Assembly: GCA_030615855.1 (NCBI GenBank)
Contig: JAUWYL010000001.1
Coordinates: forward strand, 139,008-203,007
Source of the DNA: a bacterium
GTDB lineage: Bacteria; UBP18; UBA7526
Direction of reading: 5' to 3'
DNA: 64,000 nucleotides
A program made the translations under genes and the position numbers. The notes beneath the pieces are model-generated. The model was given only the letters and a program-made list of their open reading frames with translations. It was not told the origin of the DNA and did no database searches. Shown here piece by piece: positions 21,560-46,548 of the stretch (its first letter is position 1; every line of letters starts with the position of its first letter).

Positions 21560-21682
21560 CATGATAAGGTTGAAAGAGTGGAATATCGAGTAAAGGCTAC
21601 GTTATTATGAGTTCGGAGTTAACAGTTCGGGGTTCGGAGTTGTTGGGAGAGAAAAATAAATAACAAAAGCTACAATTCTTAT

Positions 21683-21716
21683 CGCAGGAGTCTTAAAAAG
21701 CTCTTGTTTTTATTTT
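21683..21716 (+). terminator. intrinsic terminator, degenerate member of the island-associated terminator repeat
   Basis: cgcaggagtcttaaaaagctcttgtttttatttt, preceded by agctacaattctt. Compare with 34931, 36298 and 40989. Confidence 0.5.
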
Positions 21717-21755
21717 AGGGCAGGATAGAAGAGAGTAATAAGACTTTTTTGGAGT

Positions 21756-27134: not shown

Positions 27135-27998
27135 ATGATGGGATTAGCCAAGGTCTATAGTAGTGCAGTACTGGGAATAGATGCCTATTCCGTAGAGGTG
27201 GAGGTAGATATTGCCAAAGGACTTCCCTCATTCAATACCGTGGGTCTCCCCGATGTGGCAGTGAAGGAGTCCAAAGACAGGGTGAAGGCAGCAATAAAGA
27301 ACTCAGACTTTAAATTCCCGACAAAGAGAATCACTGTCAACCTTGCTCCGGCGGATGTTAAGAAAGAAGGCTCTTTATTCGATCTACCCATTGCTTTGGG
27401 AATCTTAGCGGCCACTGGGCAGATTGAGAAGGCGGAATTCAAAAAATATGTTATCTTGGGAGAATTATCCCTGGATGGAGGGATACGCTCCATCCCTGGT
27501 GCCCTGCCCATTGCTCTGGCCGGTCAAAAAGAAGGGAGAGAGGGAATTATTCTTCCTCTGGATAATAGGGCAGAGGCAGCGGTAGTAAAGGGTCTAAATG
27601 TCTATCCTGTGGAGAACCTCTCCCAGACAGTAGATTTCTTAGCGGGAAAGACAGAGATTGAACCCTTCTCCTTAGATTTAGAAGGAGTCTTTGAGAGAGG
27701 GAGAGAATATAAGGTGGATTTTACAGATGTCAAGGGACAGGAACATGCCAAGCGGGCCCTGGAGGTGGCGGCAGCCGGAGGGCACAATGTAATCATGATC
27801 GGTCCTCCGGGCTCAGGGAAGACCATGCTTGCCCGGAGATTTCCTACCATTCTTCCTGATATGACTCTGGAAGAAGCCCTGGAGACAACAAAGATTCATT
27901 CCATCGCTGGCCTTGTGCCTCCTCAGACAGCACTCATCGCCACCCGCCCCTTCAGGAGCCCCCATCATACGGCATCAGATATTGCACTGTTACAATAG
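27135..27998 (+). pseudogene. comM: comM/yifB (Mg-chelatase-like competence ATPase), 5' portion truncated by element insertion
   Basis: N-terminus LAKVYSSAVLGIDAY.VEVEVD...GLPDVAVKESKDRV and the GPPGSGKT Walker A box are present. The ORF ends at ...RSPHHTASDIALLQ-stop, where intact ComM continues LIGGG...IPRPGE. Confidence 0.8.
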
Positions 27999-28002
27999 GG
28001 GG
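27994..28002. repeat. left junction copy of AATAGGGGG (candidate att core / flanking direct repeat)
   Basis: Identical 9-mer at 46477-46485. Splicing the flanks restores the comM reading frame D-I-A-L-I-G-G-G. Confidence 0.5.
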
Positions 28003-28055
28003 TAAGGTAGAAAAGGTAGAATATCGCATAGAAGCTACATTCTGATGGCGCTTAT
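27998..28055. repeat. island repeat unit copy 1 (GGGGTAAGGTAGAAAAGGTAGAATATCGCATAGAAGCTACATT), abutting the left junction
   Basis: Related copies at 34872-34966, 36246-36336 and 40932-41024. Confidence 0.6.
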
Positions 28056-28246
28056 TGTTACTATATGGTTAGTCAGCACAAAAACTTGACAAAATAGCAA
28101 AAGTGTATTATAATATAAATAACAAATAAAACTTGACAAAGTGTAAAAACCGTGATATGTTATAGGCCACGGGAGTAATTTCCAATAAAACAAGGATTGA
28201 AACTAGGAAAATCTACATTAATAATTATGGTAAGTAGAGGAAAAAC

Positions 28247-29104
28247 ATGAGGCGAGATATACTCTATTTTGGTGCCCCTGATAGTTTCACGCATATAGCT
28301 GCACTGAAAAGATTTGGTCCAAAGTATGACTATAAATCTTACTGGGCTATAGAAAAACTATTTGATGTTATTTTGGCAAATCCTACTAATATAATGGTAG
28401 TGCCTATTGAAAATAGTACTGGTGGAACAGTTCAACGTACTGCTGACGAATTAGTAAGTGATAAATTCGGAAATAGTGATTTGCGTATTCATGAACAACT
28501 GGAATCAAACATAGTTTTGAATTTAATAGGCCGCGAAAAGAATTTATCAAGTCTTAGAAAGATATACTCACATTCATATGCACTTAGATATTGTGAAGAC
28601 TGGTTAAAGGAGACTTTGCCAAACGCAGAAATGATTTTAGTAAATAGTACTTCGGAAGCGGCTATACGTGCAAAAAATAACCGAAAATCTGGTGCAATTA
28701 GTAGCACAAAAGCAGCAAAAACGTATAATTTGAAAATAATAAAAAGGAATATTAGCAAAAACAAAGCAGTTAATGTTACAAAGTTTTATGTTATAAAGAA
28801 AACAGGTAAGAATATTCTAAAACAAAGCAACAGGACTTCCGTTGCTTTTTCCTTGAAAGATAGAATTGGTGCCCTATGCGATGTCCTTGGGATATTGGCC
28901 AATAAAAAAATTAATTTAACTCGAATCATATCTTGTCTCAAATATGACAGTTCAAATAGGAATAAAAAATTAGATAAATATGCATTTCTTATAGAACTCG
29001 AAGGTAATATAGCCCAACAGAAAGTAAAAATAGCTCTTGATGAGTTACAAAGAGCTACCTTGGCTATGCATATTTTAGGTTCCTACCCCACAAGAAAACT
29101 TTAA
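28247..29104 (+). CDS. prephenate dehydratase-like protein (PDT domain + ACT domain), divergent
   Basis: YFGAPDSFTHIAALKRFG...VVPIENSTGGTV and IYSHSYALRYC are PDT-like. VAFSLKDRIGALCDVLGILANKKINLTRI is ACT-like. The TRF motif reads TKF and ESRP is not conserved. Very AT-rich. Confidence 0.55.
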   Translation: MRRDILYFGAPDSFTHIAALKRFGPKYDYKSYWAIEKLFDVILANPTNIMVVPIENSTGGTVQRTADELVSDKFGNSDLRIHEQLESNIVLNLIGREKNLSSLRKIYSHSYALRYCEDWLKETLPNAEMILVNSTSEAAIRAKNNRKSGAISSTKAAKTYNLKIIKRNISKNKAVNVTKFYVIKKTGKNILKQSNRTSVAFSLKDRIGALCDVLGILANKKINLTRIISCLKYDSSNRNKKLDKYAFLIELEGNIAQQKVKIALDELQRATLAMHILGSYPTRKL

Positions 29105-29325
29105 CTGAAAAACAATAATGTAGATGTGGTTACATCTTGACAGCTTTGGCAAGAATATAAATTTTCTTAAAGATATACCTCTCCAAAAATCAGAAGCCCC
29201 TACTCTTCAGAGGGTTCTTTTTATGCCAAAAATCTTTAATAATCCCCGCCAACTCAGGTGGGTTATTTTTTTGTTGAAATGAAATCTTTTTCAATTTACC
29301 GACGAAGAAGGCACAGAAAAAAGTC

Positions 29326-29354
29326 TTGACAAATCAAATATCGTAGTTTATACT
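29326..29354 (+). promoter_or_regulatory. sigma70-like promoter TTGACA-17-TATACT for the 204-aa orphan gene
   Basis: TTGACA at 29326-29331 and TATACT at 29349-29354, followed by SD AAGGAGG and ATG at 29376. Confidence 0.55.
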
Positions 29355-29375
29355 ATAATCAAAAGGAGGCAAAAG

Positions 29376-29990
29376 ATGGCTAAGTTGCCGTTTCCACAAT
29401 TTCTAAGTCGTTATGGAATCAAACTTCTCTTTACTGCTACTCCGGACGTGGTGCCGGGTACGATCATAGACAAGAGAAAGAAAGGGTTCTTCGGCATTGG
29501 AACCCTTAAACAAGTTCTGGGAGGAGGCCCGGCAAAGTGGGCGACCAAACTTCAACCGGGAAATTTGGTCTATGGCACAATAGAACGGGCTCTTAGTCTT
29601 AAAGGCAAAGCGAGCCTAAACGAGTTCGGTGTGGCAATCAGCGGTGGTCTCAGACGCGCACGGTCTGTTACTTTTGAAATCACGGGCGTCAAAGTTCGAA
29701 CATTCAAAACGCAGAGTATGATTACGATATCACCTGCACTCCACAAGCTTCGCAAGTCGAACAAGCAACTTTGGAAAATGGTAAATAATAATTGGATTGC
29801 GGATTATGTTTATTATGCCAGCGAAGCAACGGTGAAGTTCTTCGTTAACGGGGGAGTGAACCTCAAAGCGGATATCCAGAATCGTTTGAAAGTGTCGGGA
29901 GAGGCAGGGGTTCAATGGAAATCCAATCGCAGCTTCACGATAACAAATAACCAAGAAGTACCTTTCGGTTTTAGCGGCTGGAAAGTTTAA
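29376..29990 (+). CDS. hypothetical beta-rich protein, compositionally distinct (GC ~47%, CGN Arg codons)
   Basis: Own promoter and own terminator. Segments with alternating hydrophobic/polar residues (SVTFEITGVKVRTFK, ATVKFFVNGGVNLKAD) suggest amphipathic beta-hairpins. No family recognised. Confidence 0.4.
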   Translation: MAKLPFPQFLSRYGIKLLFTATPDVVPGTIIDKRKKGFFGIGTLKQVLGGGPAKWATKLQPGNLVYGTIERALSLKGKASLNEFGVAISGGLRRARSVTFEITGVKVRTFKTQSMITISPALHKLRKSNKQLWKMVNNNWIADYVYYASEATVKFFVNGGVNLKADIQNRLKVSGEAGVQWKSNRSFTITNNQEVPFGFSGWKV

Positions 29991-30100
29991 GGTTGGTTGC
30001 ACACCTTATCGTCATTCGTTTGTCGGTTACGGTTTTTGACGAACTACGTAACCCCTAAACGAAACGGGCGTCCTGACCGTATTGCGTATAACGAGCAATG

Positions 30101-30133
30101 CAGGAGCCTTTAATGGCTCCTCTTTTTTTGTTT
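30101..30133 (+). terminator. intrinsic terminator GGAGCC-TTTAAT-GGCTCC + T-run
   Basis: Perfect 6-bp stem followed by T9. Confidence 0.7.
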
Positions 30134-30237
30134 TAGAAGCAGGGCGAAGGAGAGATAAAAGGCTTGTTACACTTCCCTGAGTATGCTACAATGTAATTAA
30201 CATCACGAACGAAAATCCACCTGAGAACGGAGGACTA

Positions 30238-30918
30238 ATGACTCGAGTAATGAACAAGCAAAAAAAGATCGATGCATATAATTTTCCTTATACTTTTAAT
30301 CCTTATACTGGATGCCCCTATTGCTGTCACTACTGCTACACCATTAAATCTGCTCTCTGGAGTGCACGATTGAAAAACTGGGGAATAAAACCTAATATAG
30401 CAAAACCGAAACTTGGTGTAGTTCAGAAACTGCAGCGTGATTTACAGGACCTAAAGAATATACAAACCAGATATAAAGAAGTCCAGATAGGAAATTTCTT
30501 TGATCCCTATCCTCCAATAGAACCTAAATTAAAAATTACCAGACAATGTTTGGATGTATTTCGACAATATCCAGACTGGAAAGTCCATCTAGAAACCAAG
30601 TCTCCTCTCATCTTGAATGATATGGACATCATTAAGCAGATGCCGCGTTTTGAAGCGGAAATTACAATCACCACGCTCACACACGATAAGCAATTTGAGC
30701 CGAATGCTCCATCTACAAAAGAACGATTCAACTTAATCAAAGAGCTAAATAATAATGGAATATTTACAAGGGTTATGATTATGCCTATCCTGGAAGGATA
30801 TACCGATGTAAGGGCGATAATACAAAAAGCCACTAGATATGGAGCTAAATCATGGAAATCCAAAGAATTACATTACTTTACTATTAAAGATTTAAAAACT
30901 AGATATAATATTAAGTGA
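30238..30918 (+). CDS. small radical SAM protein, SplB/COG1533-like (DNA photolyase-like radical SAM family)
   Basis: N-terminal NPYTGCPYCCHYCY provides a CxxxCxxC cluster in the context typical of COG1533 proteins. At 226 aa it is short for the family. Confidence 0.5.
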   Translation: MTRVMNKQKKIDAYNFPYTFNPYTGCPYCCHYCYTIKSALWSARLKNWGIKPNIAKPKLGVVQKLQRDLQDLKNIQTRYKEVQIGNFFDPYPPIEPKLKITRQCLDVFRQYPDWKVHLETKSPLILNDMDIIKQMPRFEAEITITTLTHDKQFEPNAPSTKERFNLIKELNNNGIFTRVMIMPILEGYTDVRAIIQKATRYGAKSWKSKELHYFTIKDLKTRYNIK

Positions 30919-31017
30919 TAAGAGTGACGAAGAAAAAAAGCTAAAGGAAATTACACCTGAAATAAATAAAAAAAGCAGGAGCTATTTTGCCCCTGCTTTT
31001 TTATTGCCTGGATAAAT

Positions 31018-31326
31018 CTATTTGAAAATGATAGATACGATTTTAGAAAGCTTCTCTATATCTTTGGTTGATTTGTTCTTAAGAAGTTTGACTATTTCAT
31101 TTCTCGCTTGCTCTTTTTTATTCGTAAAAAGTTCACTGATATCAACCTTTAGACCTTTGGCTATTTTCTCAATATTCTTAAGAGAGGGATTACACTGCCC
31201 TCTTTCTATTAATCCAATATGAGTATAGTGTAAATTAGCCCTTTCCCCGAGTTCCTCCTGTGATAACTTTCGCTCCTTCCTTAAATCCCTTACCCTATTC
31301 CCGAAAATACGATATAGATTACTCAT
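31018..31326 (-). CDS. XRE-family HTH transcriptional regulator
   Basis: LSQEELGERANLHYTHIGLIERGQCNPSLKNIEKIAKGL. It is divergent from the lipoprotein operon. Confidence 0.7.
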   Translation of the reverse strand: MSNLYRIFGNRVRDLRKERKLSQEELGERANLHYTHIGLIERGQCNPSLKNIEKIAKGLKVDISELFTNKKEQARNEIVKLLKNKSTKDIEKLSKIVSIIFK

Positions 31327-31459
31327 TTTTCACCTTCCTTCAACATTATTTTAAAGGTAAAAGGCGAGAATAACCACAGAATAAATTATTTATTTTTCTT
31401 GATTTTAATGAAGATACATAGTATAATAAAAGTAATTGTATTATATGAGGAGGGACACA

Positions 31460-32998
31460 ATGAAAAAGACTATTCTTTTAATAACAGCGTTGATTCTAAT
31501 CTTCTCGTTATGCAGAACTGGCGACTCCTACGCAGTCAGCGATAAAAAATTGGCAAAACTTGCCAAGAAAGCAGGAGGGACAATTACTGAAGCACAAGAA
31601 TCTCTTACCCGATGGAAGACCGCTGACCTTATTGTACCTCCCGAAGCTGAGAAAATCCTGGAAAAAGCTCGTAAGGCCCATAAGGCGGGTAGCTACAAAG
31701 AGGCTCGTAAGCTGGCCGAAGAGTCTCTTAAAACTAGTAGCGATAAAGGAGCATGGAAACTTGCCCAGAAGACGAAAGAAATAATCACTCAGGCACAGGG
31801 CTACATTAACCTCTGGGAAAAGGAAGACCTTACTCCTCCACCCCAAGCCAAGGAAATTTTGAAGAAAGCCAAAGCAGCTTACCAGTCATACAATAATGAA
31901 GAGGCTTGCCAGCTCGCCAGCCAATCCCTTAAAATAACCACCGATGAAGGACTGAAAAAAGAGGCCCGGAAAGCAAGGGGGGCAATTACTGAAGCAGAAG
32001 CCAGTATCACCAGATGTGAATCTGCAGGATACACTGTTCCTCAAGCCAAAGAGATCCTGAGAAAAGCTCGCCAAGCAAATGAAGCGTGTAATTATAAAGA
32101 AGCACGTAAGTTAGCTAAAAACTCTCTCGAAGTAAGTAGCAAAAAAAAGATAGCCGGGCCCGCTGAAATTAAACCTAAAAAGGTAGAGAAAACAATTAAA
32201 AAGGTAGAAAAAAAGATCTCCAAGTGGGAATCTGAAATACAAATTCCTATTCCCCAAGCAAAAAAATTTATAGAAGAAGCTAACACGTTCTACCAGTCAG
32301 GTAATTATAAAGAGGCGCGCAATCTGGCCGGAAAAGCATATAATTCCTGGCAGCATGCGGTGATGGCAGAAAGGTATATCAAAGGAATGGAAGCCCACGC
32401 TACCAAATGGGAGTCTGCGGGCTACGATGTTCCCCTCACGAAGAAAATTCTTCGTGAGGCTCGCCAAGCACAAAAAGATGGAGAACAAGAAAAAGCCCAC
32501 CATTTAGGTGCAACAGCTGTCATTGTACTAAAACGAGAAGTAGCAGGAAGCTTTGAACCAAAAATAGAATTTCAGATTAATCCCCAGCATGGCTTGACCA
32601 AGTACAAAAAAATCGTTGTTTTAAAGATTGGTGATGCACCTCAAACCTTAGGTTCCGGGGAAATAGTGACAAACCTCGTATCCCATACTCTGGCAAAAAG
32701 AAAATATCAGATAGTGCAAAATAAAGAAGAGGCTGATGCCATCATCTCTGGATCCCTAACCCGGTATGAGGCCCAAGAATCTAGTTATCGCCTGCATTCA
32801 AAAGCCTTCATTTACAAATCCCGCGTAGAATCCTACTTCCTCGCCACCGTAGAGTTAACACTTAATATGAAAGATGCTAAAACGAACACTACTGTTTGGC
32901 AAGTTAAGGGTAAACAAGAGATGGCTTCTAAAGAAATAAAACCCGTAGCCCAATCAGTCATTAACGCCATCTTAGACCAGGTTCCGCAGAGTAAGTAA
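31460..32998 (+). CDS. lipoprotein with five tandem ~45-aa helical repeats and C-terminal LpoB/CsgG/TolB-N-like alpha/beta domain
   Basis: Signal peptide with lipobox FSLC. Repeats of the form ...TRWKTADLIVPPEAEKILEKARKAHKAGSYKEARKLAEESL. C-terminal YKKIVVLKIGDAPQ...IISGSLTRY. The longest ORF starts with TTG at 31436; SD plus ATG are at 31460. Confidence 0.5.
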   Translation: MKKTILLITALILIFSLCRTGDSYAVSDKKLAKLAKKAGGTITEAQESLTRWKTADLIVPPEAEKILEKARKAHKAGSYKEARKLAEESLKTSSDKGAWKLAQKTKEIITQAQGYINLWEKEDLTPPPQAKEILKKAKAAYQSYNNEEACQLASQSLKITTDEGLKKEARKARGAITEAEASITRCESAGYTVPQAKEILRKARQANEACNYKEARKLAKNSLEVSSKKKIAGPAEIKPKKVEKTIKKVEKKISKWESEIQIPIPQAKKFIEEANTFYQSGNYKEARNLAGKAYNSWQHAVMAERYIKGMEAHATKWESAGYDVPLTKKILREARQAQKDGEQEKAHHLGATAVIVLKREVAGSFEPKIEFQINPQHGLTKYKKIVVLKIGDAPQTLGSGEIVTNLVSHTLAKRKYQIVQNKEEADAIISGSLTRYEAQESSYRLHSKAFIYKSRVESYFLATVELTLNMKDAKTNTTVWQVKGKQEMASKEIKPVAQSVINAILDQVPQSK

Positions 32999-33014
32999 TA
33001 AGGAGGTAAGGGCA

Positions 33015-34034
33015 ATGAAAAAGGTTTCTTTTGTAATAGTAACGGGGCTAATGCTACTATTCTTGTTATATGGAACTAGCGAGTCCTGCACAGCTAACGC
33101 CCAGCAAGCATATCTAGAAATTACCGGAGCTCGGATGATGATTGCCAAGAAAGAATCTCAAGGGTATGCTGTTCCTGGAGCAAAGAAGATCCTGGAAAAA
33201 GCCCGACGGGCTTATCAAGACGGTAAATATAAAAAAACCCGAAAACTGGTAGAGAAAGCCCTTGACATACTACGCAAAGAAACAGCGCCTAAAAAATCTC
33301 TGGGCCGAAAGATAGCAGAAAAGACTATCACTGGCGATACTCACATAGGAATACTAACTCGAACACTTACTACCGGTTCTAAACATACTACGATAAAAGA
33401 CAAAATAGACGAGGTGAGAGTGAGGCATGAACCCTTAGTAGAAGTTCGCCAAGAAAAACCAGGGGTCAATCTGGCTGAATACCAAAAGATAGCTGTCTTA
33501 AAATTTAAGGACGCTCCTGGAACCCCGGGTTCGGGAAGCATAGTGGCTGATCTGGTAGCAAAAGAGTTAGCAGAAAGAAAGCATAATGTCGTTGGCCCAG
33601 AAGAGCTAGAGAGGGCAGCCAGGGAAGAGAAGGACAAAGAACCAGAAATAGGCAAAGAGGTCCCAGCCTTTACTATTAGCCGGTCCGATGTCGTTGTTTC
33701 GGGGAATTTACCGGATGAAATGGTTGATTCAATATTGGCCGAGATACAAGAAGACGCTAAGCGAAAAAAAGAACGGGTTGAGGACCTAAGCTACTCCCAG
33801 ATAAAGGAAGTGTTTGGCGCTGATGTTGTTATTACGGGAATTGTTTACAAGTATGCGTCTGCAGATACAGGAGGCGTAGTCAATGTAACGATTAAAATAA
33901 TTGACATTAAAGCTGACGACATTATCTGGGAGGGCAATGGAGTATACACTCCTTCGGAGAAAGATGCTTCTTCTATAACCCAGGCGGTTGTCAAGGCCAT
34001 TCTGGATGCAGTTTCACAGGAGGAGACTCAATAA
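33015..34034 (+). CDS. lipoprotein paralog (one helical repeat + LpoB/CsgG-like C-terminal domain)
   Basis: Signal peptide, ESQGYAVPGAKKILEKARRAYQDGKYKKTRKLVEKAL, and YQKIAVLKFKDAPGTPGSGSIVADLVA...ITGIVYKY. Confidence 0.5.
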   Translation: MKKVSFVIVTGLMLLFLLYGTSESCTANAQQAYLEITGARMMIAKKESQGYAVPGAKKILEKARRAYQDGKYKKTRKLVEKALDILRKETAPKKSLGRKIAEKTITGDTHIGILTRTLTTGSKHTTIKDKIDEVRVRHEPLVEVRQEKPGVNLAEYQKIAVLKFKDAPGTPGSGSIVADLVAKELAERKHNVVGPEELERAAREEKDKEPEIGKEVPAFTISRSDVVVSGNLPDEMVDSILAEIQEDAKRKKERVEDLSYSQIKEVFGADVVITGIVYKYASADTGGVVNVTIKIIDIKADDIIWEGNGVYTPSEKDASSITQAVVKAILDAVSQEETQ

Positions 34035-34146
34035 TAGAAACTCCCCTATAGTTTATCCCACCATCACGAACAAAGGTTCGGATAAAAAGAATTCAGGTCG
34101 CCTAAAAGAAAACGGCTAAATAAACTTTTGGAAGGAAGGAGGCAGT

Positions 34147-34863
34147 ATGAGAAAGATTCTTTTGTTAGTGGTTTGTTCGCTGGCTATCTTTTTAGTGGGA
34201 TGCCAAACTTTCGACCGCTGGTTAGCTCCTTCAAAACCAGTGGTGAAAATAGTAAAAATTACTAGTAATCCTAGTGGGGCTACAATTTATATAGACAAAA
34301 AGTACAACGGAACTATGAAATGTGGAGTTACCCCATTAACATTTTATCTAAAGTTCGTTGGGGAACTTCGTGGGGGAGAATTTACAAAACCTGGCGTTTG
34401 GCTCAAAGACCAAGGAGACCAAAAGAACTTTGGATGGCTCAAAAGAACACATCCTCAGGGGTATGAGTTTGAGGTTACGGTAAAAAAAATAAGATACAAA
34501 GAGGGGAAAATAAGAATAGACCTCGAACCACGCGACAAGACAGACTACCATATTGACCTAGAAGAAATAGAGACTATTTCTGTAGATGAGGTAGGTAAAC
34601 ATATAGGAGAGACGAAGATCGTAAGATGCCGGATAGTCTATACCGATAATGTAAGGGGGCGAGTATTTCTATTTACGGGCAAAGATTATAGGAAAGACTT
34701 TGCGGTAGAGATCTACTATCTGAGTAACTTTTCTTTCAACCCCGCTGCTTACTATCTGGGAAAGGAAATCGAGGTTCTGGGGCTTATACAAGGGGGCTGG
34801 CGCGAGGGCTTGCCCCCGTTTATCAGTGTTACCAGTCCCGACGAAATAAGAGTGATAGAGTAG
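34147..34863 (+). CDS. lipoprotein (lipobox LVGC), unknown function
   Basis: The MRKILLLVVCSLAIFLVGCQ signal is a lipoprotein signal. Confidence 0.45.
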   Translation: MRKILLLVVCSLAIFLVGCQTFDRWLAPSKPVVKIVKITSNPSGATIYIDKKYNGTMKCGVTPLTFYLKFVGELRGGEFTKPGVWLKDQGDQKNFGWLKRTHPQGYEFEVTVKKIRYKEGKIRIDLEPRDKTDYHIDLEEIETISVDEVGKHIGETKIVRCRIVYTDNVRGRVFLFTGKDYRKDFAVEIYYLSNFSFNPAAYYLGKEIEVLGLIQGGWREGLPPFISVTSPDEIRVIE

Positions 34864-34871
34864 AAAAGAAA

Positions 34872-34966
34872 AAGGGGGATTTTAGGAAAGAATAGAATAT
34901 CGGGTAGAAGTTATGTTATAATGTTCACCGCAGGAGTCTTAAAAGGCTCCTCTTTTTTTGTTTTAG
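34872..34966. repeat. island repeat unit copy 2 (includes terminator)
   Basis: aaagggggattttaggaaagaatagaatatcgggtagaagttatgttataatg...cgcaggagtcttaaaaggctcctcttttttt. Confidence 0.7.
34931..34962 (+). terminator. intrinsic terminator (AGGAGT-loop-GCTCCT + T-run)
   Basis: Hairpin plus T9. Identical module at 40989. Confidence 0.65.
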
Positions 34967-36245
34967 AAGAGGGGAAGAGATATCTAAAAACCGATTCAGA
35001 ATCAATCAAGGAGAAGCCAGGCCGTGCTCAATCTTTAAGTGCAAGTTTAATTCCTGCTCAACAATATCCATTTTGGAACCAATCCGAAAACCCCTCATGA
35101 ATTTATTCAGGAAATGTGGGTTGCCTCATTCCCAGAATAAAAATCTAAAGTTCATCAGCGGTTTTCTCTTCCAAAATGAATTGACCAGGAATTAAACCCC
35201 CTTCTCTTCAAGATGACCGAGCTGAGAATTAGAACCAAGATATCTTAGTTCATTCCAGTCCAGAGATGTAGGGATGCCTCATCTCTTCCCTTCCACTCAT
35301 AAGATAATACCCTTCTATCTTCCAGCGAGCCTGTTAGGGTCTTGGACCTAATTCTCACATTTTAAAGAGAAGGGTCATCATCTACCCCAGCGAGATAGAT
35401 GATGTTTCCACTCAAAGATTACTGGCTTCTCCTCCTGAATCTATTATGGATGACCCCCAAATTCTGCCAGGCAAGAAAGATTGTGTGGGTGGTGGTGGAC
35501 AGGCTCACTCCTCCTGGGGTGGTGGCAACCTTTCCCCTCGCATAGCATCGAAGCTGGGCGGGAAAGCCACGCCCTTCCCCTTTAGCGGGGAATTGGGCAG
35601 ATAATGCGCATTATCTGCCCTTGCTCACTATGGATGTTGGGTCGTCTTTTCGGGCTAAAACCTCAACATAAAATTTATTTTATGTTAACCTGCCACCACG
35701 CAAGAGGGATATGTCATTTGGCCCACCATCCCTTTCTGAGGGACGACCAATAAAGATGTTTCACCCTTAAGGTCGCCCTCATACTCCCACCCGTTATCCC
35801 ACCAACAGGTTCTCATACCATTAACCACTACAGGAGAGGGCATCAGGCTTCATAAAAGGAGCATCTATCCTTTGGGGAGGGGCTATCAGCAGGAAGCATA
35901 TATCTGGGGGAGCACCTATGGAATGGACAGAGAAGCTTCGAAGCAAAGCAGGAAGAAAGTAGCAGGCAGGAACGAACCGGGGGAGTCCGGGTAGATGTAT
36001 CCTCCCAGCGGCTCTTTGCTCCCGTAGCAGACTATTCCGCATGTCCGGAACAGGCAAGAAGAATCTCTGAATTTTATGGAAAAAGTCTGTAAGCCCCCGT
36101 CGCTATTGAACTTAGGGGAATTTCGGGTATTCCGTCTGAACGGAACAGCCTTTAAGAAGCAGGGATCTATCACCCCACACTTTAAAAATGCGATATAGGA
36201 CGGATACGGAGCTCCCAGGGGCATTCCAGGGAAGTATCTAATGGC
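34967..36245. other. ORF-free ~1.3 kb block, GC ~50%, rich in perfect palindromes (candidate cis-acting ori/oriT/att region or large ncRNA)
   Basis: No ORF longer than 102 aa on either strand. Loop-less palindromes GGGCAGATAATGCGCATTATCTGCCC (35595-35620) and AACATAAAATTTATTTTATGTT (35666-35687), plus a 9-bp-stem hairpin at 35376-35404. Bounded by repeat copies 2 and 3. Confidence 0.35.
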
Positions 36246-36336
36246 AAAAGGGTGAAAGGATAAAATATCGGGGGGAAGCTACATTATAATGCTTACCGCA
36301 GGAGTCATAAAGTGAATCCTGTCTTTTTGTTTTAAA
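36246..36336. repeat. island repeat unit copy 3 (diverged; includes terminator 36298-36334)
   Basis: aaagggtgaaaggataaaatatcggggggaagctacattataatg...cgcaggagtcataaagtgaatcctgtcttttt. Confidence 0.6.
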
Positions 36337-36424
36337 ACAGAGTAAAGGAGAGTAAAAAAATGCTTGCAATTTCCACCGAAATATGATAAGATTTTAAGTA
36401 GAAATTGAGGTAGAGAGAAAAATA

Positions 36425-37567
36425 ATGAAGAATGGCTACGTAAAGAAGGCAAGAACCAAAGCTCAGGTATGGATCAAGGAAAATCTTTCTGATTATTTAG
36501 ATGTAGTGTCCATCGGTCTACCAGAATATGATGACAGATACAATATTTGGAGAGTACCGTTAAATCTCGAAAATGGTAAGGATAGATTAGTCGGTGAAAT
36601 CAAATACGATAAATCTATTGAAAAAATGGTAGGTCGTACAAAAACCAAGATTATAACAGAAAGAATTGAAAAGTATCGTAACGAAAAGCCAAAAAAAGCG
36701 AAACAGAAAAGTGGATTATTCTATCCTGCTCCTATCCCAAACAAAGTTATACTAGGAGATGCAATTAAAGTTCTTGAGGATTTTCCACCCGATACAGCAC
36801 AACTTATGATTACATCCCCACCATATTTTAATGCCAAACCAGAATACTCTGAATATGTTGACTATCAAGAATATCTGGACTTTTTAAGGAAGGCTATTGC
36901 CAGAGTTCATAATGTCTTATCGGATGGGAGATTCTTGGTTATGAATGTCTCCCCCGTATTGATTAGGAGAACATCCCGTAAAACATCAAGTAAGCGCATA
37001 CCAATACCGTTTGATGTACATAAAGTAATAGAGAGTGTTGGTTTTGAGTTTATGGATGACATAATATGGGTTAAACCGGAAGGAGCTGGATGGAATTTGG
37101 GTAGAGGTAGAAGATTTAGAGCGGATCGGCAACCTTTGCAGTACAAGCCAGTTCCAGTAACGGAACATGTTTTGGTCTATCGGAAGAAAACTGATAAGCT
37201 GATTGACTGGAATATCCGAAGGCATTATGACCAAAAACTTGTAAAGAGATCAAAAATACGCGGAAAATATGAAGTTACAAATGTGTGGCACATTCATCCG
37301 GCATTTAGCAAACACCACCCAGCAGTATTCCCGAGAGAACTTGTTCGCAGGATAATAAGATACTATTCATTCAAGGATGATCTCGTTTTAGACCCATTTG
37401 CTGGTTCGGGTACAGTGGGTCATGTGGCTTATGAGATGGGCAGACGCTTTCTACTCATCGACAACGACCCCAAGTATTTCAAACTAATGAAGAGAGCGCT
37501 GAATGAGAGAATTAAAAATAAAATAAGAATCGATTACGAAATTCATGAAACATTTAAGGGGGTGTAA
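36425..37567 (+). CDS. DNA methyltransferase, beta-class, SPPY motif (probable N4-cytosine; N6-adenine not excluded)
   Basis: Motif IV ITSPPYFN precedes motif I DPFAGSGTVGHVA. S-P-P-Y/F is characteristic of m4C methyltransferases. Confidence 0.75.
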   Translation: MKNGYVKKARTKAQVWIKENLSDYLDVVSIGLPEYDDRYNIWRVPLNLENGKDRLVGEIKYDKSIEKMVGRTKTKIITERIEKYRNEKPKKAKQKSGLFYPAPIPNKVILGDAIKVLEDFPPDTAQLMITSPPYFNAKPEYSEYVDYQEYLDFLRKAIARVHNVLSDGRFLVMNVSPVLIRRTSRKTSSKRIPIPFDVHKVIESVGFEFMDDIIWVKPEGAGWNLGRGRRFRADRQPLQYKPVPVTEHVLVYRKKTDKLIDWNIRRHYDQKLVKRSKIRGKYEVTNVWHIHPAFSKHHPAVFPRELVRRIIRYYSFKDDLVLDPFAGSGTVGHVAYEMGRRFLLIDNDPKYFKLMKRALNERIKNKIRIDYEIHETFKGV

Positions 37568-38519
37568 GATAAATATTCAATTTGATGTAGATAAATATAG
37601 AGGGTGGCTGAGAAAGAACGTAACATTAAGTGATCCATTATCTCCTGAATCACTAAAGACTCTTGTTTATCATCTTCTTTTGGGTAAAAATTATCGTCTT
37701 CTGACGGAGAGAAACACCAAAGAAAAACTGTTTGCTACCTATATATGGTTGACAGATGTATACAACAAAGCAAAAGAAGAATACGGCAATGACTGGCGAG
37801 AAAAAATGCTTGGTGAACTTTTAGGTGAAGAAAGACCAAAAAAAGAGCAGAAGGATTTAACGTTTTGGTTGTTGGGACTTACACAAAAAGGAGCGGTAAA
37901 TCTTGGCATAGCCAAAAATGACTATCCTACGGTACTAAATGAGGTGATTGGATATTGTAGAAAACTATTCTCAGAGATGGGTGTTGATGGAAGGGAGGAT
38001 AATACTTGGCTCCTAATGATGGCTGGATCGGCCACTCTAAATATACGTGGTTCACAAAAAGCAAAGATAGGTAAAACCCTTGAGAAAGTTTTTTTGAGAG
38101 CTATGCTTACTATACTTGGTCTAGAAGAAAATGAAACCTTCTGGATGAATATTGGAAGAGACATAGAAGTTGAGAGAGAAGCTGATGCGGAAGTAAGAAC
38201 GAGGAGGGGGAGGATTAGAATCGAAGTTGGGTTGATTGCCCCAGGGAACCAAGAAGTAATAGAGGATAAAATCTCAAGAGTAGGAAGGAATGGAATTGTT
38301 ATATTTGATAAACTTGGTCCCCGTTCCAGAGTGTACGAAACAGCAGAACGCAATCATGTAAAATTAATCCAGATAAGAAACAATCAGCCTCTAATCGAGA
38401 TATATCGACATCTAAAACCATTAGTAGATATAGAACTAAGGAAGCCATCACAAACCGAAAAAGAACTCAAAAAATTAATAAACAAATTATCAGATGAAAC
38501 ACTACGACCAGCCACTTAA
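37545..38519 (+). CDS. hypothetical protein overlapping the MTase stop (candidate cognate restriction endonuclease or specificity partner)
   Basis: 23-nt overlap implies co-translation. Acidic cluster IGRDIEVEREADAEV...IRIEVGLI is a possible PD-(D/E)xK-like motif. No confident family assignment. Confidence 0.35.
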   Translation: MKHLRGCKINIQFDVDKYRGWLRKNVTLSDPLSPESLKTLVYHLLLGKNYRLLTERNTKEKLFATYIWLTDVYNKAKEEYGNDWREKMLGELLGEERPKKEQKDLTFWLLGLTQKGAVNLGIAKNDYPTVLNEVIGYCRKLFSEMGVDGREDNTWLLMMAGSATLNIRGSQKAKIGKTLEKVFLRAMLTILGLEENETFWMNIGRDIEVEREADAEVRTRRGRIRIEVGLIAPGNQEVIEDKISRVGRNGIVIFDKLGPRSRVYETAERNHVKLIQIRNNQPLIEIYRHLKPLVDIELRKPSQTEKELKKLINKLSDETLRPAT

Positions 38520-38891: not shown

Positions 38892-40511
38892 ATGACAAAA
38901 CACAAGAAGAAACGTTCACAGAAAAAAAGAAAAAATCAATTTACCCCCATCAACAAACACAAAAGAGATGGTTCAAAGCTGGCCTCAAAATTGTCTAGTC
39001 TGAATCTTCAAATGATAGATTGGGAAAGAGATTTAATTCCTGAGCATCTTTGGATAGATTTATTAGCTGAGGAATATAAAGATGTTCTTTGGTTTAAAAT
39101 TTATAACGAATTTCTAGATAAGTTAGAAGAATGCTTGACAGAACAACCCAAAACTCCACTGTTTGGCTTTATTTCAGATTTTGCCATTCCTTCAGATGAA
39201 GAAAAAGAAAAATTTATAAATAACAATAAAGATTTAATCTTTAATGCTTTTTTTAAACCTATTGGTAAAATTTTATCTTTATATCCAGAAAGTCCAGCAA
39301 GTTGGTTGGTATTAAAAGAGTGGCTAGATAGCGAAAAGGTTGATTTTGAAGAAGAATTAAATAAACTTTCTCAATCTGTATCTCGCCTGATGAAAGCAAA
39401 AGATCTATATGCAGGGCACATACGCGCCTTGCCTTTAAATAGGCTATTTAAGCACAATAAAATCTTTTTAGCACAGGGAAAAATGGATGAATTAGCTGAG
39501 CTACTTCCAAAATATCCTGAAAAATGTACTAAAGAAGAAAAATATCATGTTCAATCATTTGCCAGAACAACAATAAATCAGAATTTTATGACAGAAGAAA
39601 GATATAAGGATATGGTTTGGTCAAAATATTTTTGGCGACACAATTATGATTTAGTACCATGCGCTCCCCTTAATGAATCTCTTGAAGATGGCGACATTGA
39701 AATGCATGATGAAAAAGTAAAAGAAATACAAAAAAAGACCTGGGAAAATTCTATCAAGTTAATGAAATATCTTGATAAAATTGCAATGCAATATAAATAC
39801 GATTTATACAATCCTATGATAGATCAGATAAAACTAGGACTATTCTCAAGGATTGTTAGATTATATATTTCATTTGTATCAAATCCATTTTTATGGACTA
39901 GGGATCTTTCCTGCATAATGCTAAGATGCTTAGGTGAAACGACTATTATATTTCACTATTTAATACTTCATGGAACAAATGAAGATTTTAAAAACTTCCA
40001 TGACTATGCGGTTGGGAAGGAAAAATTATTAATGTTGCACATCCAGGACACCTACCAAGAGTTTCTTTCTTTAGAAGGTAAAGACACAGAAAAGATTGCC
40101 AAAGATATTGGTGGTGATTTTCACGCAGAAATAACAGCTGTAGAATTAAAGGGCTGGATAAAAAAAGATATCCGCACAATGGCTGATAACACAGGATTAC
40201 AGAAAATTTATAAAATCATAGTTGATCCGTCTAATGCAGATATTCATGGATCATGGTCCAGTATTCGTAAGTCAAATTTAGTAATTTGCCGTCAGATTCT
40301 ACATAGATTCCATAGAATACCGAAATTTTATGAGCCTCCTGTTTATTTAGGAGCTTTGGTAGCAGCAGATTCAATTTATTTAACGGCAAAAGAAATAGCC
40401 GTTCAAAAGTTAGGATTTCCTGAACCTGATGAAACTTTATCAGAAATATCAGAGGTGAAAAAGGCAATTCAAGAAAGATCGAAAGAAATAATTAAGAAAT
40501 TTAAACCCTAA
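38892..40511 (+). CDS. hypothetical 539-aa protein, AT-rich, basic N-terminus
   Basis: No recognisable motif. It follows the MTase pair. Confidence 0.4.
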   Translation: MTKHKKKRSQKKRKNQFTPINKHKRDGSKLASKLSSLNLQMIDWERDLIPEHLWIDLLAEEYKDVLWFKIYNEFLDKLEECLTEQPKTPLFGFISDFAIPSDEEKEKFINNNKDLIFNAFFKPIGKILSLYPESPASWLVLKEWLDSEKVDFEEELNKLSQSVSRLMKAKDLYAGHIRALPLNRLFKHNKIFLAQGKMDELAELLPKYPEKCTKEEKYHVQSFARTTINQNFMTEERYKDMVWSKYFWRHNYDLVPCAPLNESLEDGDIEMHDEKVKEIQKKTWENSIKLMKYLDKIAMQYKYDLYNPMIDQIKLGLFSRIVRLYISFVSNPFLWTRDLSCIMLRCLGETTIIFHYLILHGTNEDFKNFHDYAVGKEKLLMLHIQDTYQEFLSLEGKDTEKIAKDIGGDFHAEITAVELKGWIKKDIRTMADNTGLQKIYKIIVDPSNADIHGSWSSIRKSNLVICRQILHRFHRIPKFYEPPVYLGALVAADSIYLTAKEIAVQKLGFPEPDETLSEISEVKKAIQERSKEIIKKFKP

Positions 40512-40635: not shown

Positions 40636-40953
40636 ATGACTAAAACCTACTTTGAAGAAATCTCAACTCAAACTATGGAGCATATCAAGAAGGCCATATT
40701 AGAATACCGACAAGGCAAATATAGCGACCCTATGGTACTGCCTAACGCTATTGCCGCAATTCTGGAGACAGAGATAGAGGATCCGGAATATCAGAAATTT
40801 GCGGTAGAAAATTATAGTCAAATTGTCGGAATTGTCATTAATAAAAATCCAAAGTATTTAGCCATTAAGAGTAATATTGAAAGAGATTTTTACTTTCAGG
40901 TCGATGACGAAATAGTAGAGGCTTATCAAAAAGGAGTAAGGTTAAAAGGATAG
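40636..40953 (+). CDS. hypothetical small protein (start at SD-ATG MTKTYFEE; longest ORF from 40561)
   Basis: SD GGGGAG precedes the ATG at 40636. The C-terminus reads into repeat copy 4. Confidence 0.35.
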   Translation: MTKTYFEEISTQTMEHIKKAILEYRQGKYSDPMVLPNAIAAILETEIEDPEYQKFAVENYSQIVGIVINKNPKYLAIKSNIERDFYFQVDDEIVEAYQKGVRLKG

Positions 40954-41024
40954 AATATCGGGTAGAAGTTATGTTATAGCGCTTCTCGCAGGAGTCTTAA
41001 AAGGCTCCTCTTTTTTTGTTTTGG
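40932..41024. repeat. island repeat unit copy 4, closest to the attL-adjacent copy (includes terminator 40989-41022)
   Basis: aaaaaggagtaaggttaaaaggatagaatatcgggtagaagttatgttatagcg...cgcaggagtcttaaaaggctcctcttttttt. Confidence 0.7.
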
Positions 41025-41049
41025 AGCAAAATAAAGAAGGATAAAAGAG

Positions 41050-41172
41050 GCGATAAAAAATATTTTTCGGGAGCAAACCAAAAAAGGACTTGACTTTTTC
41101 TATAAAATATGGTATATTATAAGTAGTAGTGGTTGAGGGGTTAACTTTAATTTTCAGGAGGGAATAGACGGG
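41050..41172 (+). repeat. duplicated promoter/leader block, copy A (promoter TTGACT 41090-41095, TATATT 41113-41118)
   Basis: ~85% identical to 41489-41612 and includes a diverged copy of the first codons of the MerR-like gene. Confidence 0.7.
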
Positions 41173-41438: not shown

Positions 41439-41488
41439 AAAGAAAGTAGGGATGGGGAGGAAACCGGCCAAGAAGAGGAGAAGGGGGG

Positions 41489-41612
41489 CAATAAAAAATA
41501 TTTTTCGGGAGCAAACCAAAAAAGTACTTGACTTTTTCAGTAAGATATGGTATAATATAAAGTAAGGTGGTAGAAAGACTAACTTTAATCTTTCAGGAGG
41601 GAACAGATGGAG
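41489..41612 (+). promoter_or_regulatory. duplicated promoter/leader block, copy B (TTGACT 41528-41533, TATAAT 41551-41556) driving the MerR-like gene
   Basis: Consensus -35/-10 with 17-nt spacer. SD CAGGAGGGAACAG followed by ATG at 41607. Confidence 0.6.
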
Positions 41613-42993: not shown

Positions 42994-43980
42994 ATGGAGA
43001 GGTGTAAGATGAAACGTTTACCCAGTGTATCAGTCAAGCTCGCTAGTATAATCTGTATAGCAGGTTTCATCCTTCTGTGGTATGTTTTAATTGCGGCCCA
43101 CACTACAGGACTTGTTAAGAGTTGTTTTATCATCTATAGCATAGGTTTGATGGTGGTTACTTCTTATTGGAGCTATAGAATTGCAGAATGGGTCCGAATA
43201 AGGAATACGCAATCTGTAAAAAACATATTTGCTTTTTTCTTCGGCAAATTATTTAGCCCTCGCGCACTTAAAATATTCGAGAAGATAAGGACTGAGCACC
43301 AGGATACCATCGACAAAATCCGGGGTTCTCTATTCCGTGAAGCTTCTCCGGAAGACGAACTTGTTATATCCTTGATAAATCGTCTCTTATCTGCTCTTTT
43401 TGATTTACCCGATTTTAAATACGGACAGAAGAGTCTTTTTTCCTACTCTTTACTGGTAGCCGTTCACTCCTTAGAAGATTTTGAAACGAGAGTCTGGCGG
43501 ATGGAGACCCCGGAAGGAACGCGCGACGGCGTTAAAACAATTATGATGAGGGATAAATGGAAGTTAGGAGTTTGTATCTCTGCCCTGGCGAGTAACCTAG
43601 GCAGGGTTTACGAAGCGGAAGTATCTAGCCGTAAAGCATCTGCAGAAGTTTGGAACCCAGGGCGTGAAGAACTTTATACCTTCGCCCTTCGCCATAAGGA
43701 GTATGGTATTAAGTTGAAACCTACTCAAGAAAATTTCCACAAAATCCCCACCAATTATCTCCTTCATTATATTGTGAATAGCGATGTGGCTGAAGAATTG
43801 GGAGAAGAAGTGTTCTTTGAGGTGCTGGATTCCCTGTCTCCTGCTCCTAATTCCAAGAATCGTATCTTCCCTGTGGTGGAAGAAGGAAACAAGCTAACTG
43901 TTGAAGAAATCTCTAAATCCAAAGAGGCAGTGAGAGGAGGTCGGTATTGTCCACCAGAGAAGAAAACAAAAGAAAACTAA
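42994..43980 (+). CDS. membrane protein (two N-terminal TM helices) with a cytoplasmic domain
   Basis: Hydrophobic segments SIICIAGFILLWYVLIAA and IIYSIGLMVVTSYW. Confidence 0.4.
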   Translation: MERCKMKRLPSVSVKLASIICIAGFILLWYVLIAAHTTGLVKSCFIIYSIGLMVVTSYWSYRIAEWVRIRNTQSVKNIFAFFFGKLFSPRALKIFEKIRTEHQDTIDKIRGSLFREASPEDELVISLINRLLSALFDLPDFKYGQKSLFSYSLLVAVHSLEDFETRVWRMETPEGTRDGVKTIMMRDKWKLGVCISALASNLGRVYEAEVSSRKASAEVWNPGREELYTFALRHKEYGIKLKPTQENFHKIPTNYLLHYIVNSDVAEELGEEVFFEVLDSLSPAPNSKNRIFPVVEEGNKLTVEEISKSKEAVRGGRYCPPEKKTKEN

Positions 43981-44943: not shown

Positions 44944-46548
44944 ATGAAGTGTGCTATTTATATCCGGGTATCAACTACTGAACAGGCAGAAAAAGGAACG
45001 AGTTTAAAAACCCAAGAAGAAGCCTTGAAGAAGTATTGCCAAGAGAACAATTATCAGATTTATAACATCTACAAAGATGATGGTTATAGTGGTGGCACTC
45101 TTGACAGGCCAGGGATTCAAAGGCTGTTAGAAGATATTAAGGAAGGCAAATTTCAGGCTGTTATAGTTTATAAGACAGACCGCTTGAGCAGATCTATTAG
45201 AAACATAGTTAATCTCGTGCTTGGTGATTTTGAAAAATATGGCATAATCTTTAAGTCTATTACTGAGCCTTATGATACTTCTATGCCTGCCGGCAGGATG
45301 TTCTTTGTTCAATTAAGTAGTTTCGCAGAATTTGAAAGAGAGACGATCAAAGAAAGAAGTAAAGAAGGCAAGTTAAGAAGGACCTTAGAAGGCAAATATA
45401 TGCTGAGCGTTCCACCTTTTGGCTATAGAAAAGATAAAAACAAAAGGCTAATTATAGACCGAGAAGAAAAGAAAGTTTATCTCCAAATAGTAAGATGGTG
45501 TTTAGATGGTGTAGGTAGTAATACTATTGCCCGGAGGCTCAATGAGCGAAACATCCCAACTAAAAAGGCTAAACTCTATAATAAACCATATAGATGGAAG
45601 CAGGGAACAGTCCTTGATTTTTTAAAACACCCTCGTTATAAAGGAGAGTTTATCTATAAAGGACATAAAGTAAAGATTCCAGCTCTGATTACAGAGGGGC
45701 GGTGGGAGCAAGTCCAGAGGCAATTAGAGAGCAACTATAACAATGCTTTAAGACATACAAGGCGGTTTTATCTTTTGAGGAATCTCTTATACTGCAAGAA
45801 ATGTGGAAGAAGGCTCTTTGGTTTGATAAAGCCCAAGAAGGGGATGAGACTCTATTGTTGTCTCAGTAAAAGGCCAGACCCAGAACCCAGATTTTGTGGC
45901 CTCAAAAATGTTAATATAGATAAAACGAATATTATTGTCTGGAATAAAATCAAAGAGATAGTCAAGAACTCTCAAAAATTAAAAGAGGCCATAGAGGAGC
46001 AAAAGGGTAGCCATTATGTTAAAGGTTACATATCCGAAATAGAGGTAAAGAATATTAACCAAATTATTCAAAGCAAAGAGAGGGAAATTGATAGGATTTT
46101 AGAACTTTATAGTCGGTCAAAAGCATTATCTATCGCAGAGTTAGATAGAAAAGTAGATGGCATTAAAAAACAAAAAGATAACTTAGTGCAGGAAAGAGAG
46201 AAAATATCAGAGGAAATAAATCGGGCCAGACAGGCAAAAGAGACTTTAAAACATCTTGAAAACTATATGGCAAAGATAAGCAAAAGAATAGATAATTTTA
46301 CTAATGAAGAAAAGTATGAATTTATCCATTTGATTGTAAGTAAGATTATAGTTGATTATGACAGAGATTTAAGGTATCATAGTATAGAGATAGAGGGAGC
46401 AATACCAATATTTAGAGAGGAAGACAGGATTCCTAAATATACCCCCCTATTACAACAAGACAATAGATATTTCCCTAATAGGGGGAGGGAGAATCCCCCG
46501 TCCAGGCGAGGTGAGCCTCTCTCACCATGGGGTTTTATTCTTAGATGA
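44944..46548 (+). CDS. large serine recombinase (integrase) of the element
   Basis: The YIRVSTTEQ catalytic Ser motif and VYKTDRLSR resolvase motifs, a recombinase domain, and a Cys-rich zinc ribbon CKKCGRRL...CC. The 3' end reads through the right junction into host sequence. Confidence 0.85.

Follow-up and report, generated by a model that had tools for sequence, protein, structure and literature searches.

What are a prephenate dehydratase, a protein in which a Pfam scan detects no domain and an unusually short radical SAM protein doing next to each other, and do they belong together? The question is raised by a stretch of 64,000 nucleotides (the window) from a bacterium of the GTDB lineage UBP18; UBA7526 (assembly GCA_030615855.1, contig JAUWYL010000001.1, positions 139,008 to 203,007), in which three open reading frames, all on the forward strand, encode a prephenate dehydratase (PDT) with an ACT domain, a protein of 204 amino acids (aa) and a radical SAM protein of 226 aa. 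An initial annotation, made from the letters of the DNA, had described them as a cargo trio with an orphan in the middle. The protein of 204 aa is a short bacterial gasdermin homologue, which consists of the pore-forming domain only and lacks the inhibitory tail. Taken as a whole, the evidence makes it probable that the three genes are independent cassettes, encoding a tail-less gasdermin homologue, a divergent PDT and a minimal radical SAM protein, and carried by an island inserted into the host gene comM.

Since each of the three genes has many conserved homologues, they can be considered real genes and not chance open reading frames. Their composition is contrasting: the PDT gene has a GC content of 0.329 and a GC content at third codon positions (GC3) of 0.245, the gasdermin-like gene shows values of 0.460 and 0.473, and the radical SAM gene of 0.352 and 0.326, the flanking host genes having a GC content around 0.45-0.50 and a GC3 of ~0.5. 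Moreover, a promoter-like sequence and a terminator-like hairpin of its own accompany each gene (Table 1). The initial annotation was right in placing the PDT gene in a foreign, AT-rich codon context, the gene lying inside the element that splits comM, and also in attributing to the middle gene a distinct GC content, its own promoter and its own terminator; the description of this gene as an orphan has to be given up, because its product has numerous relatives and the gasdermin fold.

This fold is supported by several lines of evidence. The bacterial gasdermin (bGSDM) model of PADLOC matches residues 5-200 of the protein with an E-value of 5.7e-10, and its closest homologue (75% identical, locus L047) carries a weak precomputed match to Bact_GSDM of Pfam. 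The AlphaFold model, obtained with an alignment of 27 family members, has a predicted local distance difference test (pLDDT) score of 91.1 and a predicted TM-score (pTM) of 0.85, and contains the beta-alpha-beta insertions that become membrane hairpins in gasdermins. When Foldseek was used against the PDB, the top seven matches were all bacterial gasdermins (7n51, 7n52, 7n50, 8sl0), with a probability of 1.0, a best E-value of 3e-7 and a TM-score of 0.62, the next gasdermin structures being the pores of Vitiosangium and Trichoplax. The profile built from the family matches the sequences of 7n51 and 8sl0 over the full length (E 4e-5), and its positions 9-204 align to residues 11-220 of the 266 of the Vitiosangium bGSDM, the conserved C-terminus VPFGFSGWKV being aligned with LVFGFKCFEI, the final core strand of the latter. 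The protein is strongly basic, with 31 lysines and arginines versus 10 aspartates and glutamates, and contains no cysteine.

Canonical bGSDMs extend beyond this core strand through a cleavage loop and an autoinhibitory peptide, whose length is given as 17-67 aa and also as ~20-30 residues, their N-terminal cysteine is palmitoylated, and 43 of 50 of their genes adjoin a gene encoding a protease (caspase-like C14/CHAT, subtilase etc.). Removal of the C-terminal peptide from these proteins leads to toxicity (bioRxiv 10.1101/2021.06.07.447441). The protein of 204 aa stops at the last core strand, with neither a cleavage loop nor a C-terminal inhibitory peptide. No protease domain was detected in the scanned open reading frames of the island, and Pfam analysis of the neighbours revealed no protease gene beside the gasdermin-like homologues in the other loci examined.

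Relatives of this protein were collected by a word-indexed search and by comparing a profile exhaustively with 1.84 billion cluster representatives. The former recovered 47 relatives, almost all of 204-211 aa, and the latter 197 at E <= 1e-3 (124 at E <= 1e-10); about 200 clusters, defined at 50% identity, have a format of ~200-230 aa. The near-full-length representatives (n=113) measure 194-249 aa, with a median of 213, and continue for a median of only 2 residues past the end of the profile, that is, past the last core strand, whilst a cysteine within the first 10 residues is found in 1 of 160 members. The tail-less format is a property of the family. Neither a search of 72,556 plasmids nor a structural comparison with viral proteins yielded a match to the protein. 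Those gasdermin-like loci that carry an organism name belong to Bacteroidota, Fibrobacterota and Thermoanaerobaculia. An all-against-all clustering of the neighbouring genes revealed only lineage-specific synteny, with no universal partner of the gasdermin-like gene, and Pfam identifies ordinary genes among these neighbours. In Bacteroidales, the homologue occupies a stable chromosomal position between SusCD and a GH18 gene, which is not a defence island.

In two other loci (L048, 7368-7919, and L049, 2739-3290), an Amidase_3 gene of 183 aa lies directly upstream, and on the same strand, of a 66%-identical gasdermin-like homologue. No N-terminal signal sequence can be recognised by eye in this amidase, and the arrangement resembles an endolysin-holin pair.

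How a protein of this kind could act may be outlined as follows. The basic, cysteine-free protein would bind the inner membrane, where its two beta-alpha-beta insertions would refold into hairpins, and would then oligomerise into a pore killing or lysing the cell. Taking into account that neither a C-terminal inhibitory peptide nor a partner protease was found, the trigger would be non-proteolytic; it might lie in the regulation of transcription, in a protein of the phage or of the host, or in the membrane state. In the literature searched, cleavage-independent, domain-only gasdermins have been reported for Trichoplax and fungi (Neurospora), and not for bacteria. It is tentatively suggested that the protein of 204 aa belongs to a widespread class of domain-only bacterial gasdermins that would be switched on without proteolysis, acting as solitary death or lysis effectors, and that would be the counterpart, possibly the ancestral form, of those of Trichoplax and fungi; we hold this suggestion to be possible rather than probable. 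Its interest lies in the fact that known bacterial gasdermins have been described as protease-gated, with a peptide that silences the pore domain until a neighbouring protease cuts. A large family devoid of peptide, protease and palmitoylated cysteine raises the questions of how such proteins are kept harmless and what turns them on. If the suggestion is true, the bacterial set makes the origin of cleavage-independent control testable, and those defence-system finders that require a gasdermin-protease pair miss most such genes.

The gasdermin fold might instead serve a function other than regulated death, either in housekeeping or membrane remodelling, or in providing a partner, for instance a cell-wall amidase, with a pore for lysis or export. 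The stable and syntenic position in Bacteroidales chromosomes, together with the ordinary genes that surround the homologues elsewhere, would agree with a role of this type, as would the fact that every known control element (tail, protease and palmitoylated cysteine) is absent from the protein, and the amidase genes of L048 and L049 could be taken as its endolysin-like partners. However, this amidase neighbour is limited to one lineage, the closest structures all correspond to pore-forming gasdermins in their inactive state, and the model contains the beta-alpha-beta insertions. The strong net positive charge, and the fact that the window copy is carried by a mobile island which also holds restriction-modification and DitA-like genes, speak for an effector as well, and a non-effector role appears unlikely to us.

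As regards the relationship among the three genes, all the proteins of the island were compared by tblastn with 48 fetched loci. None of the 25 other gasdermin-like loci, taken with as much as 10 kb of flanking sequence if the contig was long enough, contains a relative of the PDT or of the radical SAM protein, the latter being similar to spore photoproduct lyase (SPL), and none of the 20 loci encoding short radical SAM proteins contains a relative of the PDT or of the gasdermin-like protein. The only co-occurrence among the loci is found in L025, a mobile-looking contig, in which a gene of the PDT clade and another encoding an SPL-like radical SAM protein of 275 aa, 30% identical to that of the window, lie ~2.7 kb apart with four unrelated genes between them. 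In L023, the gene of the PDT clade appears in a chromosomal-looking context, with no radical SAM gene nearby.

It could be thought that the three genes constitute one functional module, a new metabolite-linked defence or biosynthetic system in which the PDT-like enzyme would make or sense an aromatic metabolite, the radical SAM protein would modify it and the gasdermin-like protein would be the effector. The three are adjacent, on the same strand and on a defence-rich island; besides the pairing in L025, a radical SAM gene likewise comes after the gene of the closest gasdermin homologue, in L047. This last gene was discarded as a member of the trio, since it encodes an unrelated SPASM-type enzyme beside a peptide of 59 aa and has no tblastn match to the radical SAM protein of the window, and the protein of L025 is a longer form. 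With a promoter and a terminator for each gene, differing GC contents and no co-occurrence in either set of loci, a common module is very improbable. Thus, the separate transcription signals, the contrasting composition and the near-absence of co-occurrence lead us to consider the three genes as independent cassettes. The cargo trio of the initial annotation, which had been made to depend in part on conserved co-occurrence in other genomes, is abandoned as a conserved system, because no such conservation is seen in the loci compared and L025 alone pairs a gene of the PDT clade with a distant radical SAM gene.

Several observations weigh against the interpretation as a whole. The prok_gasdermin model of NCBIfam matches the protein of 204 aa weakly (19.8 vs a cut-off of 100), it is no more than 11-18% identical to solved gasdermins in sequence, and the TM-score of 0.62 is moderate. 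To place a near-consensus promoter ahead of a pore-former without an inhibitor would seem hazardous to the cell, no control having been identified, and the chromosomal synteny in Bacteroidales fits a regulated suicide effector less well. With respect to the independence of the cassettes, the pairing in L025 makes a loose association between PDT and radical SAM genes possible, given that three contexts of the PDT clade were available, and the PDT and gasdermin-like genes of the window are jointly bracketed by two copies of a repeat of the island (see below), which makes their arrival as a single module possible.

The PDT itself departs from the enzymes of the phenylalanine pathway at several points. 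Pfam recognises a PDT domain (1.3e-42) and, weakly, an ACT domain (2.5e-5, 24.4 bits vs a cut-off of 27), and the profile of its clade can be aligned from end to end with the solved PDTs 4lub and 2qmx, 2qmw being a further solved PDT. The score with the prephenate dehydratase model NF008865 of NCBIfam, 192.5 bits, is below the equivalog cut-off of 219. In the alignment, no variation is seen at the catalytic threonine T178, at N176 and F180, or at the residues E55-N56-S57 of the IENS substrate motif. It has been reported that the TRF motif is critical for catalysis and that GALV and ESRP are phenylalanine-regulatory motifs (PMC13217925). In the protein of the window, the motif reads NVTKF, TRF being present in 111 of the 120 nearest homologues, GALC takes the place of GALV, and the position of ESRP, which is present in 108 of the 120, is occupied by ISCL with an insertion of 6 residues; an insertion of 5 residues follows DELVS. 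Only five close relatives exist (44-48% identity), which together with this protein make up a rare clade of six members without a chorismate mutase domain. These five show THF or TQF, and ISRP, so that the arginine of TRF is replaced by lysine, histidine or glutamine in the clade. The nearest ordinary PDTs (36-42% identity) mostly have a chorismate mutase domain, and nearly all of them TRF and ESRP; those with a named source come from Omnitrophota, Elusimicrobiota and Nitrospirota. The clade is absent from IMG/VR, and phage records contain PDT matches that seem to be ordinary pheA genes and may lie in host-derived sequence.

Most likely, this protein is a prephenate- or arogenate-type dehydratase that would escape feedback by phenylalanine, possibly with an altered substrate or rate, as can be supposed from its motifs. 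The initial annotation had already noted a complete PDT and ACT architecture with TKF instead of TRF and without ESRP, and its doubts about an ordinary pheA were well founded. With its altered catalytic triad and its lost phenylalanine-sensing motif, the enzyme is a smaller curiosity than the gasdermin homologue, a rare variant. The opposite view, that the PDT is just an ordinary enzyme of the phenylalanine pathway and the radical SAM protein a housekeeping one, with nothing accessory in either, could appeal to the complete architecture, to its alignment with solved PDTs and to a NCBIfam score not far under the cut-off. But the element splitting comM contains both genes, their GC3 values differ from those of the host genes, the nearest ordinary PDTs keep the motifs, and mostly the chorismate mutase domain, that the clade lacks, and the homologues of the radical SAM protein adjoin integrases and phage-like genes, all of which makes that view extremely improbable.

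The radical SAM protein matches the Radical_SAM domain of Pfam (6.8e-10, 39.8 bits vs a cut-off of 29.5), and the cysteines of the cluster, C26, C30 and C33 (in GCPYCCHYCY), do not vary within the family of short proteins to which it belongs. Its closest NCBIfam models are the COG1533-type families PA0069 and Rv2578c, and it also matches the family named "radical SAM mobile pair protein B"; the scores obtained (107.5, 79.9 and 69.9 bits) are far below the cut-offs (360, 410 and 430), and the protein covers only approximately the first 200 positions of these profiles, which have 285-348. The structural model (pLDDT 91.8) finds its best match in SPL (TM-score 0.68-0.71, 15-16% identity), and the initial annotation of a protein similar to COG1533 and SplB, with the CxxxCxxC motif and yet much shorter, is thereby corroborated. 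Since the approximately 17 relatives (47-64% identity) have 220-236 aa, the short length is a trait of the family and not the result of a truncation. In the 20 loci in which they were examined, the genes of these relatives have as neighbours integrases, an HNH nuclease and ArdC, together with numerous small open reading frames. The protein matches PHROG 13321 at 1e-28, its phage matches being only 25-30% identical, and one distant match exists in IMG/VR. It is a minimal SPL-like core of phage-like and mobile DNA, for which a DNA or nucleotide substrate is only a guess suggested by its relatives and context; like the PDT, it is a smaller curiosity, in this case a variant associated with mobile elements.

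In two lineages (L027, 8663-9232, and L032, 7291-8001), a stand-alone MgsA_C-like gene (189-236 aa, the products being about 40% identical to each other) is joined end to end with, or overlaps, the gene of the short radical SAM protein, and both genes may form a conserved two-gene module on phage-like DNA. This gene was considered as a partner of the radical SAM protein of the window and rejected, as it has no counterpart there.

The three genes are the attL-proximal cargo of an integrative, possibly mobilizable, element of ~18.5 kb with defence genes (Table 1). Its target is comM (yifB), a Mg-chelatase-like AAA+ gene whose two parts lie outside the junctions; an open reading frame of 510-515 aa is restored by in-frame joins between about 27976-27992 and 46465-46481, and the uninterrupted comM is predicted to read ...GCACTGTTAGGGGGAGGG... 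or similar. A split target gene, a recombinase at one end and a short repeat at both junctions, the features by which an integrative element is recognised, are all present, and the GC content of the island is 0.389 vs 0.451 outside. Taking into account the split comM, the repeat AATAGGGGG at both junctions, the recombinase abutting attR and the GC content of the island, the large serine recombinase would have inserted the element into the host comM. Besides the genes listed in Table 1, the island carries a gene for a MerR-type regulator.

Table 1. Coordinates in the window of the genes, signals, junctions and repeats of the comM island.
Feature	Position	Strand	Evidence or remarks
comM/yifB, 5' fragment	27135-27998	+	ChlI 1.5e-50; Mg_chelatase profile positions 1-91 of 207 only (Pfam)
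Left junction, attL	27994-28002	.	9-bp AATAGGGGG, present at both junctions
Island repeat, partial copy	28004-28047	+	Directly inside attL; repeat family alignment
Two tandem sigma-70-like promoters of the PDT gene	28086-28114 (12/12); 28133-28161 (10/12 + TG)	+	Also form a direct repeat
Solitary CRISPR-repeat-like sequence	28167-28203	+	CCACGGGAGTAATTTCCAATAAAACAAGGATTGAAAC, with ATTGAAAC as its end; downstream of both promoters, within the leader of the PDT gene; Rfam CRISPR-DR7
PDT-ACT gene (285 aa)	28247-29104	+	
Terminator-like hairpin (29245-29262) and T-run after the PDT gene	29245-29272	+	
Promoter of the gasdermin-like gene	29326-29354 (11/12)	+	Near-consensus TTGACA-17-TATACT
Gasdermin-like gene (204 aa)	29376-29990	+	
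Island repeat copies	30057-30160 (+); 34880-34990; 36248-36359; 40938-41048		Each before a + strand module
Terminator-like hairpin after the gasdermin-like gene	30102-30121	+	Within the island repeat copy 30057-30160
Promoter-like site of the radical SAM gene	30164-30192 (9/12 + TG)	+	TTGTTA-17-TACAAT, with TG
SPL/COG1533-like radical SAM gene (226 aa)	30238-30918	+	
Hairpin terminator between the convergent radical SAM and helix-turn-helix (HTH) genes	30969-31002	.	
XRE-type HTH regulator	31018-31326	-	HTH_3 4e-15 (Pfam)
Type II restriction-modification pair	36425-38519	+	N6_N4 methyltransferase and CfrBI-family endonuclease
DUF5677 protein	38892-40511	+	DitA model 1e-31 (PADLOC); DUF5677 (Pfam)
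Weak MobH-like relaxase match	42994-43980	+	MobH 1.6e-12 (NCBIfam); its 47 bits do not reach the cut-off of 200
Large serine recombinase (534 aa), at attR	44944-46548	+	Resolvase, Recombinase, Zn_ribbon_recom (Pfam); PHROG 95 integrase 1e-116
Right junction, attR	46477-46485	.	AATAGGGGG
comM, 3' part	46511-47164	+	Mg_chelatase positions 103-206 of 207 and Mg_chelatase_C (Pfam); GVLFLDE and PCPCG motifs (motif scan)

The island repeat, of 80-115 nucleotides, has five copies in the island and one outside it (21572-21733), and consists of an extended -10 element of the TGTTATAAT type, followed within about 10 nucleotides by a hairpin/T-run terminator. In the copy outside the island, an insert of 68 nucleotides separates the two parts. 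This element could be a terminated leader, subjected to control by antitermination, a gene for a tiny hairpin RNA, or a relic recombination site; the existence of a copy outside the island makes it uncertain that the repeats are relic attachment sites marking a tandem accretion of the cargo.

The leader of the PDT gene contains another element, similar to a CRISPR repeat. It matches CRISPR-DR7 of Rfam over its full length, with 32.9 bits vs a gathering score of 37 and E-values of 3.7e-5 to 0.0034, and is present as a single copy, the window containing neither an array nor cas genes. Solitary repeat units acting as RNA anti-CRISPRs (Racr) have been described (PMC10651486), and the sequence could be a candidate for one of them. 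The exact repeat (...TTTCCAATAAAACAAGGATTGAAAC) has no match in IMG/VR, and no similar element appears in the related loci. The window has no Rfam match at the gathering threshold and no tRNAs.

Some other regions of the island are also worthy of mention. Divergent from the XRE-type regulator, an operon-like run (31436-34863) encodes three predicted lipoproteins, the first a DUF4136 protein with internal repeats of ~201 nucleotides, the second GNA1162-like and the third with a PEGA domain. A region of ~1.25 kb (35000-36250), with a GC content of ~0.47 and a copy of the island repeat on each side, contains no forward-strand open reading frame of at least 90 aa and no Rfam match, and could correspond to a gene in decay or to an RNA not yet characterised. 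Upstream of the MerR-type gene, a direct repeat of 117 nucleotides, 81% identical, occupies positions 41038-41154 and 41476-41592, with a spacing of 438 nucleotides.

Genomic islands inserted into comM are known from the resistance islands of Acinetobacter. The element described here shares with them the target gene and its interruption within the AAA+ domain, although integration is attributed in this case to a large serine recombinase (CcrB/XisF-like) and not to a Tn7-like transposition module, and the cargo is made up of restriction-modification, DitA-like, gasdermin-like, PDT and radical SAM genes. With respect to PheA and the P-protein, the PDT of the island keeps the full catalytic domain followed by ACT, the catalytic threonine, IENS and the GAL motif; it differs from them in the absence of the chorismate mutase domain, in TKF and ISCL, in a score below the equivalog cut-off and in its location on a mobile island. 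The radical SAM protein has in common with SPL and the COG1533 proteins the CxxxCxxC motif in a PYxGC context and the association with mobile DNA, its 226 aa vs 340 aa making it ~110 residues shorter than SPL; unlike the radical SAM mobile pair proteins, it lacks a "pair A" partner.

The comparison of greatest relevance is that with the gasdermins. Like the canonical bGSDMs of Runella, Bradyrhizobium and Vitiosangium (Johnson et al. 2022), the protein of 204 aa has the N-terminal pore-forming fold in its inactive conformation, from the helix at the N-terminus to the last core strand, and its gene sits on a mobile island with defence genes; unlike them, it has no cleavage loop, inhibitory peptide, adjacent protease or palmitoylated N-terminal cysteine, and the short gasdermin-like gene is usually solitary, in ordinary chromosomal neighbourhoods. 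Domain-only gasdermins that are activated without cleavage, namely TrichoGSDM from Trichoplax and RCD-1-1/RCD-1-2 from Neurospora, figure in the account of Li et al. 2024 given in PMC12547243. In structure, the protein of 204 aa matches them less well than it does the bGSDMs (8jyw, probability 0.89; 8jyv, probability 0.41). Moreover, TrichoGSDM is kept inactive as disulfide-linked dimers, whereas the protein of the island has no cysteine, and RCD-1 requires two incompatible alleles, whereas one gasdermin-like copy is found per locus here. What they share with the protein of the island is a single pore-forming domain without an inhibitory C-terminal region, because of which activation by removal of a tail is impossible in TrichoGSDM and RCD-1.

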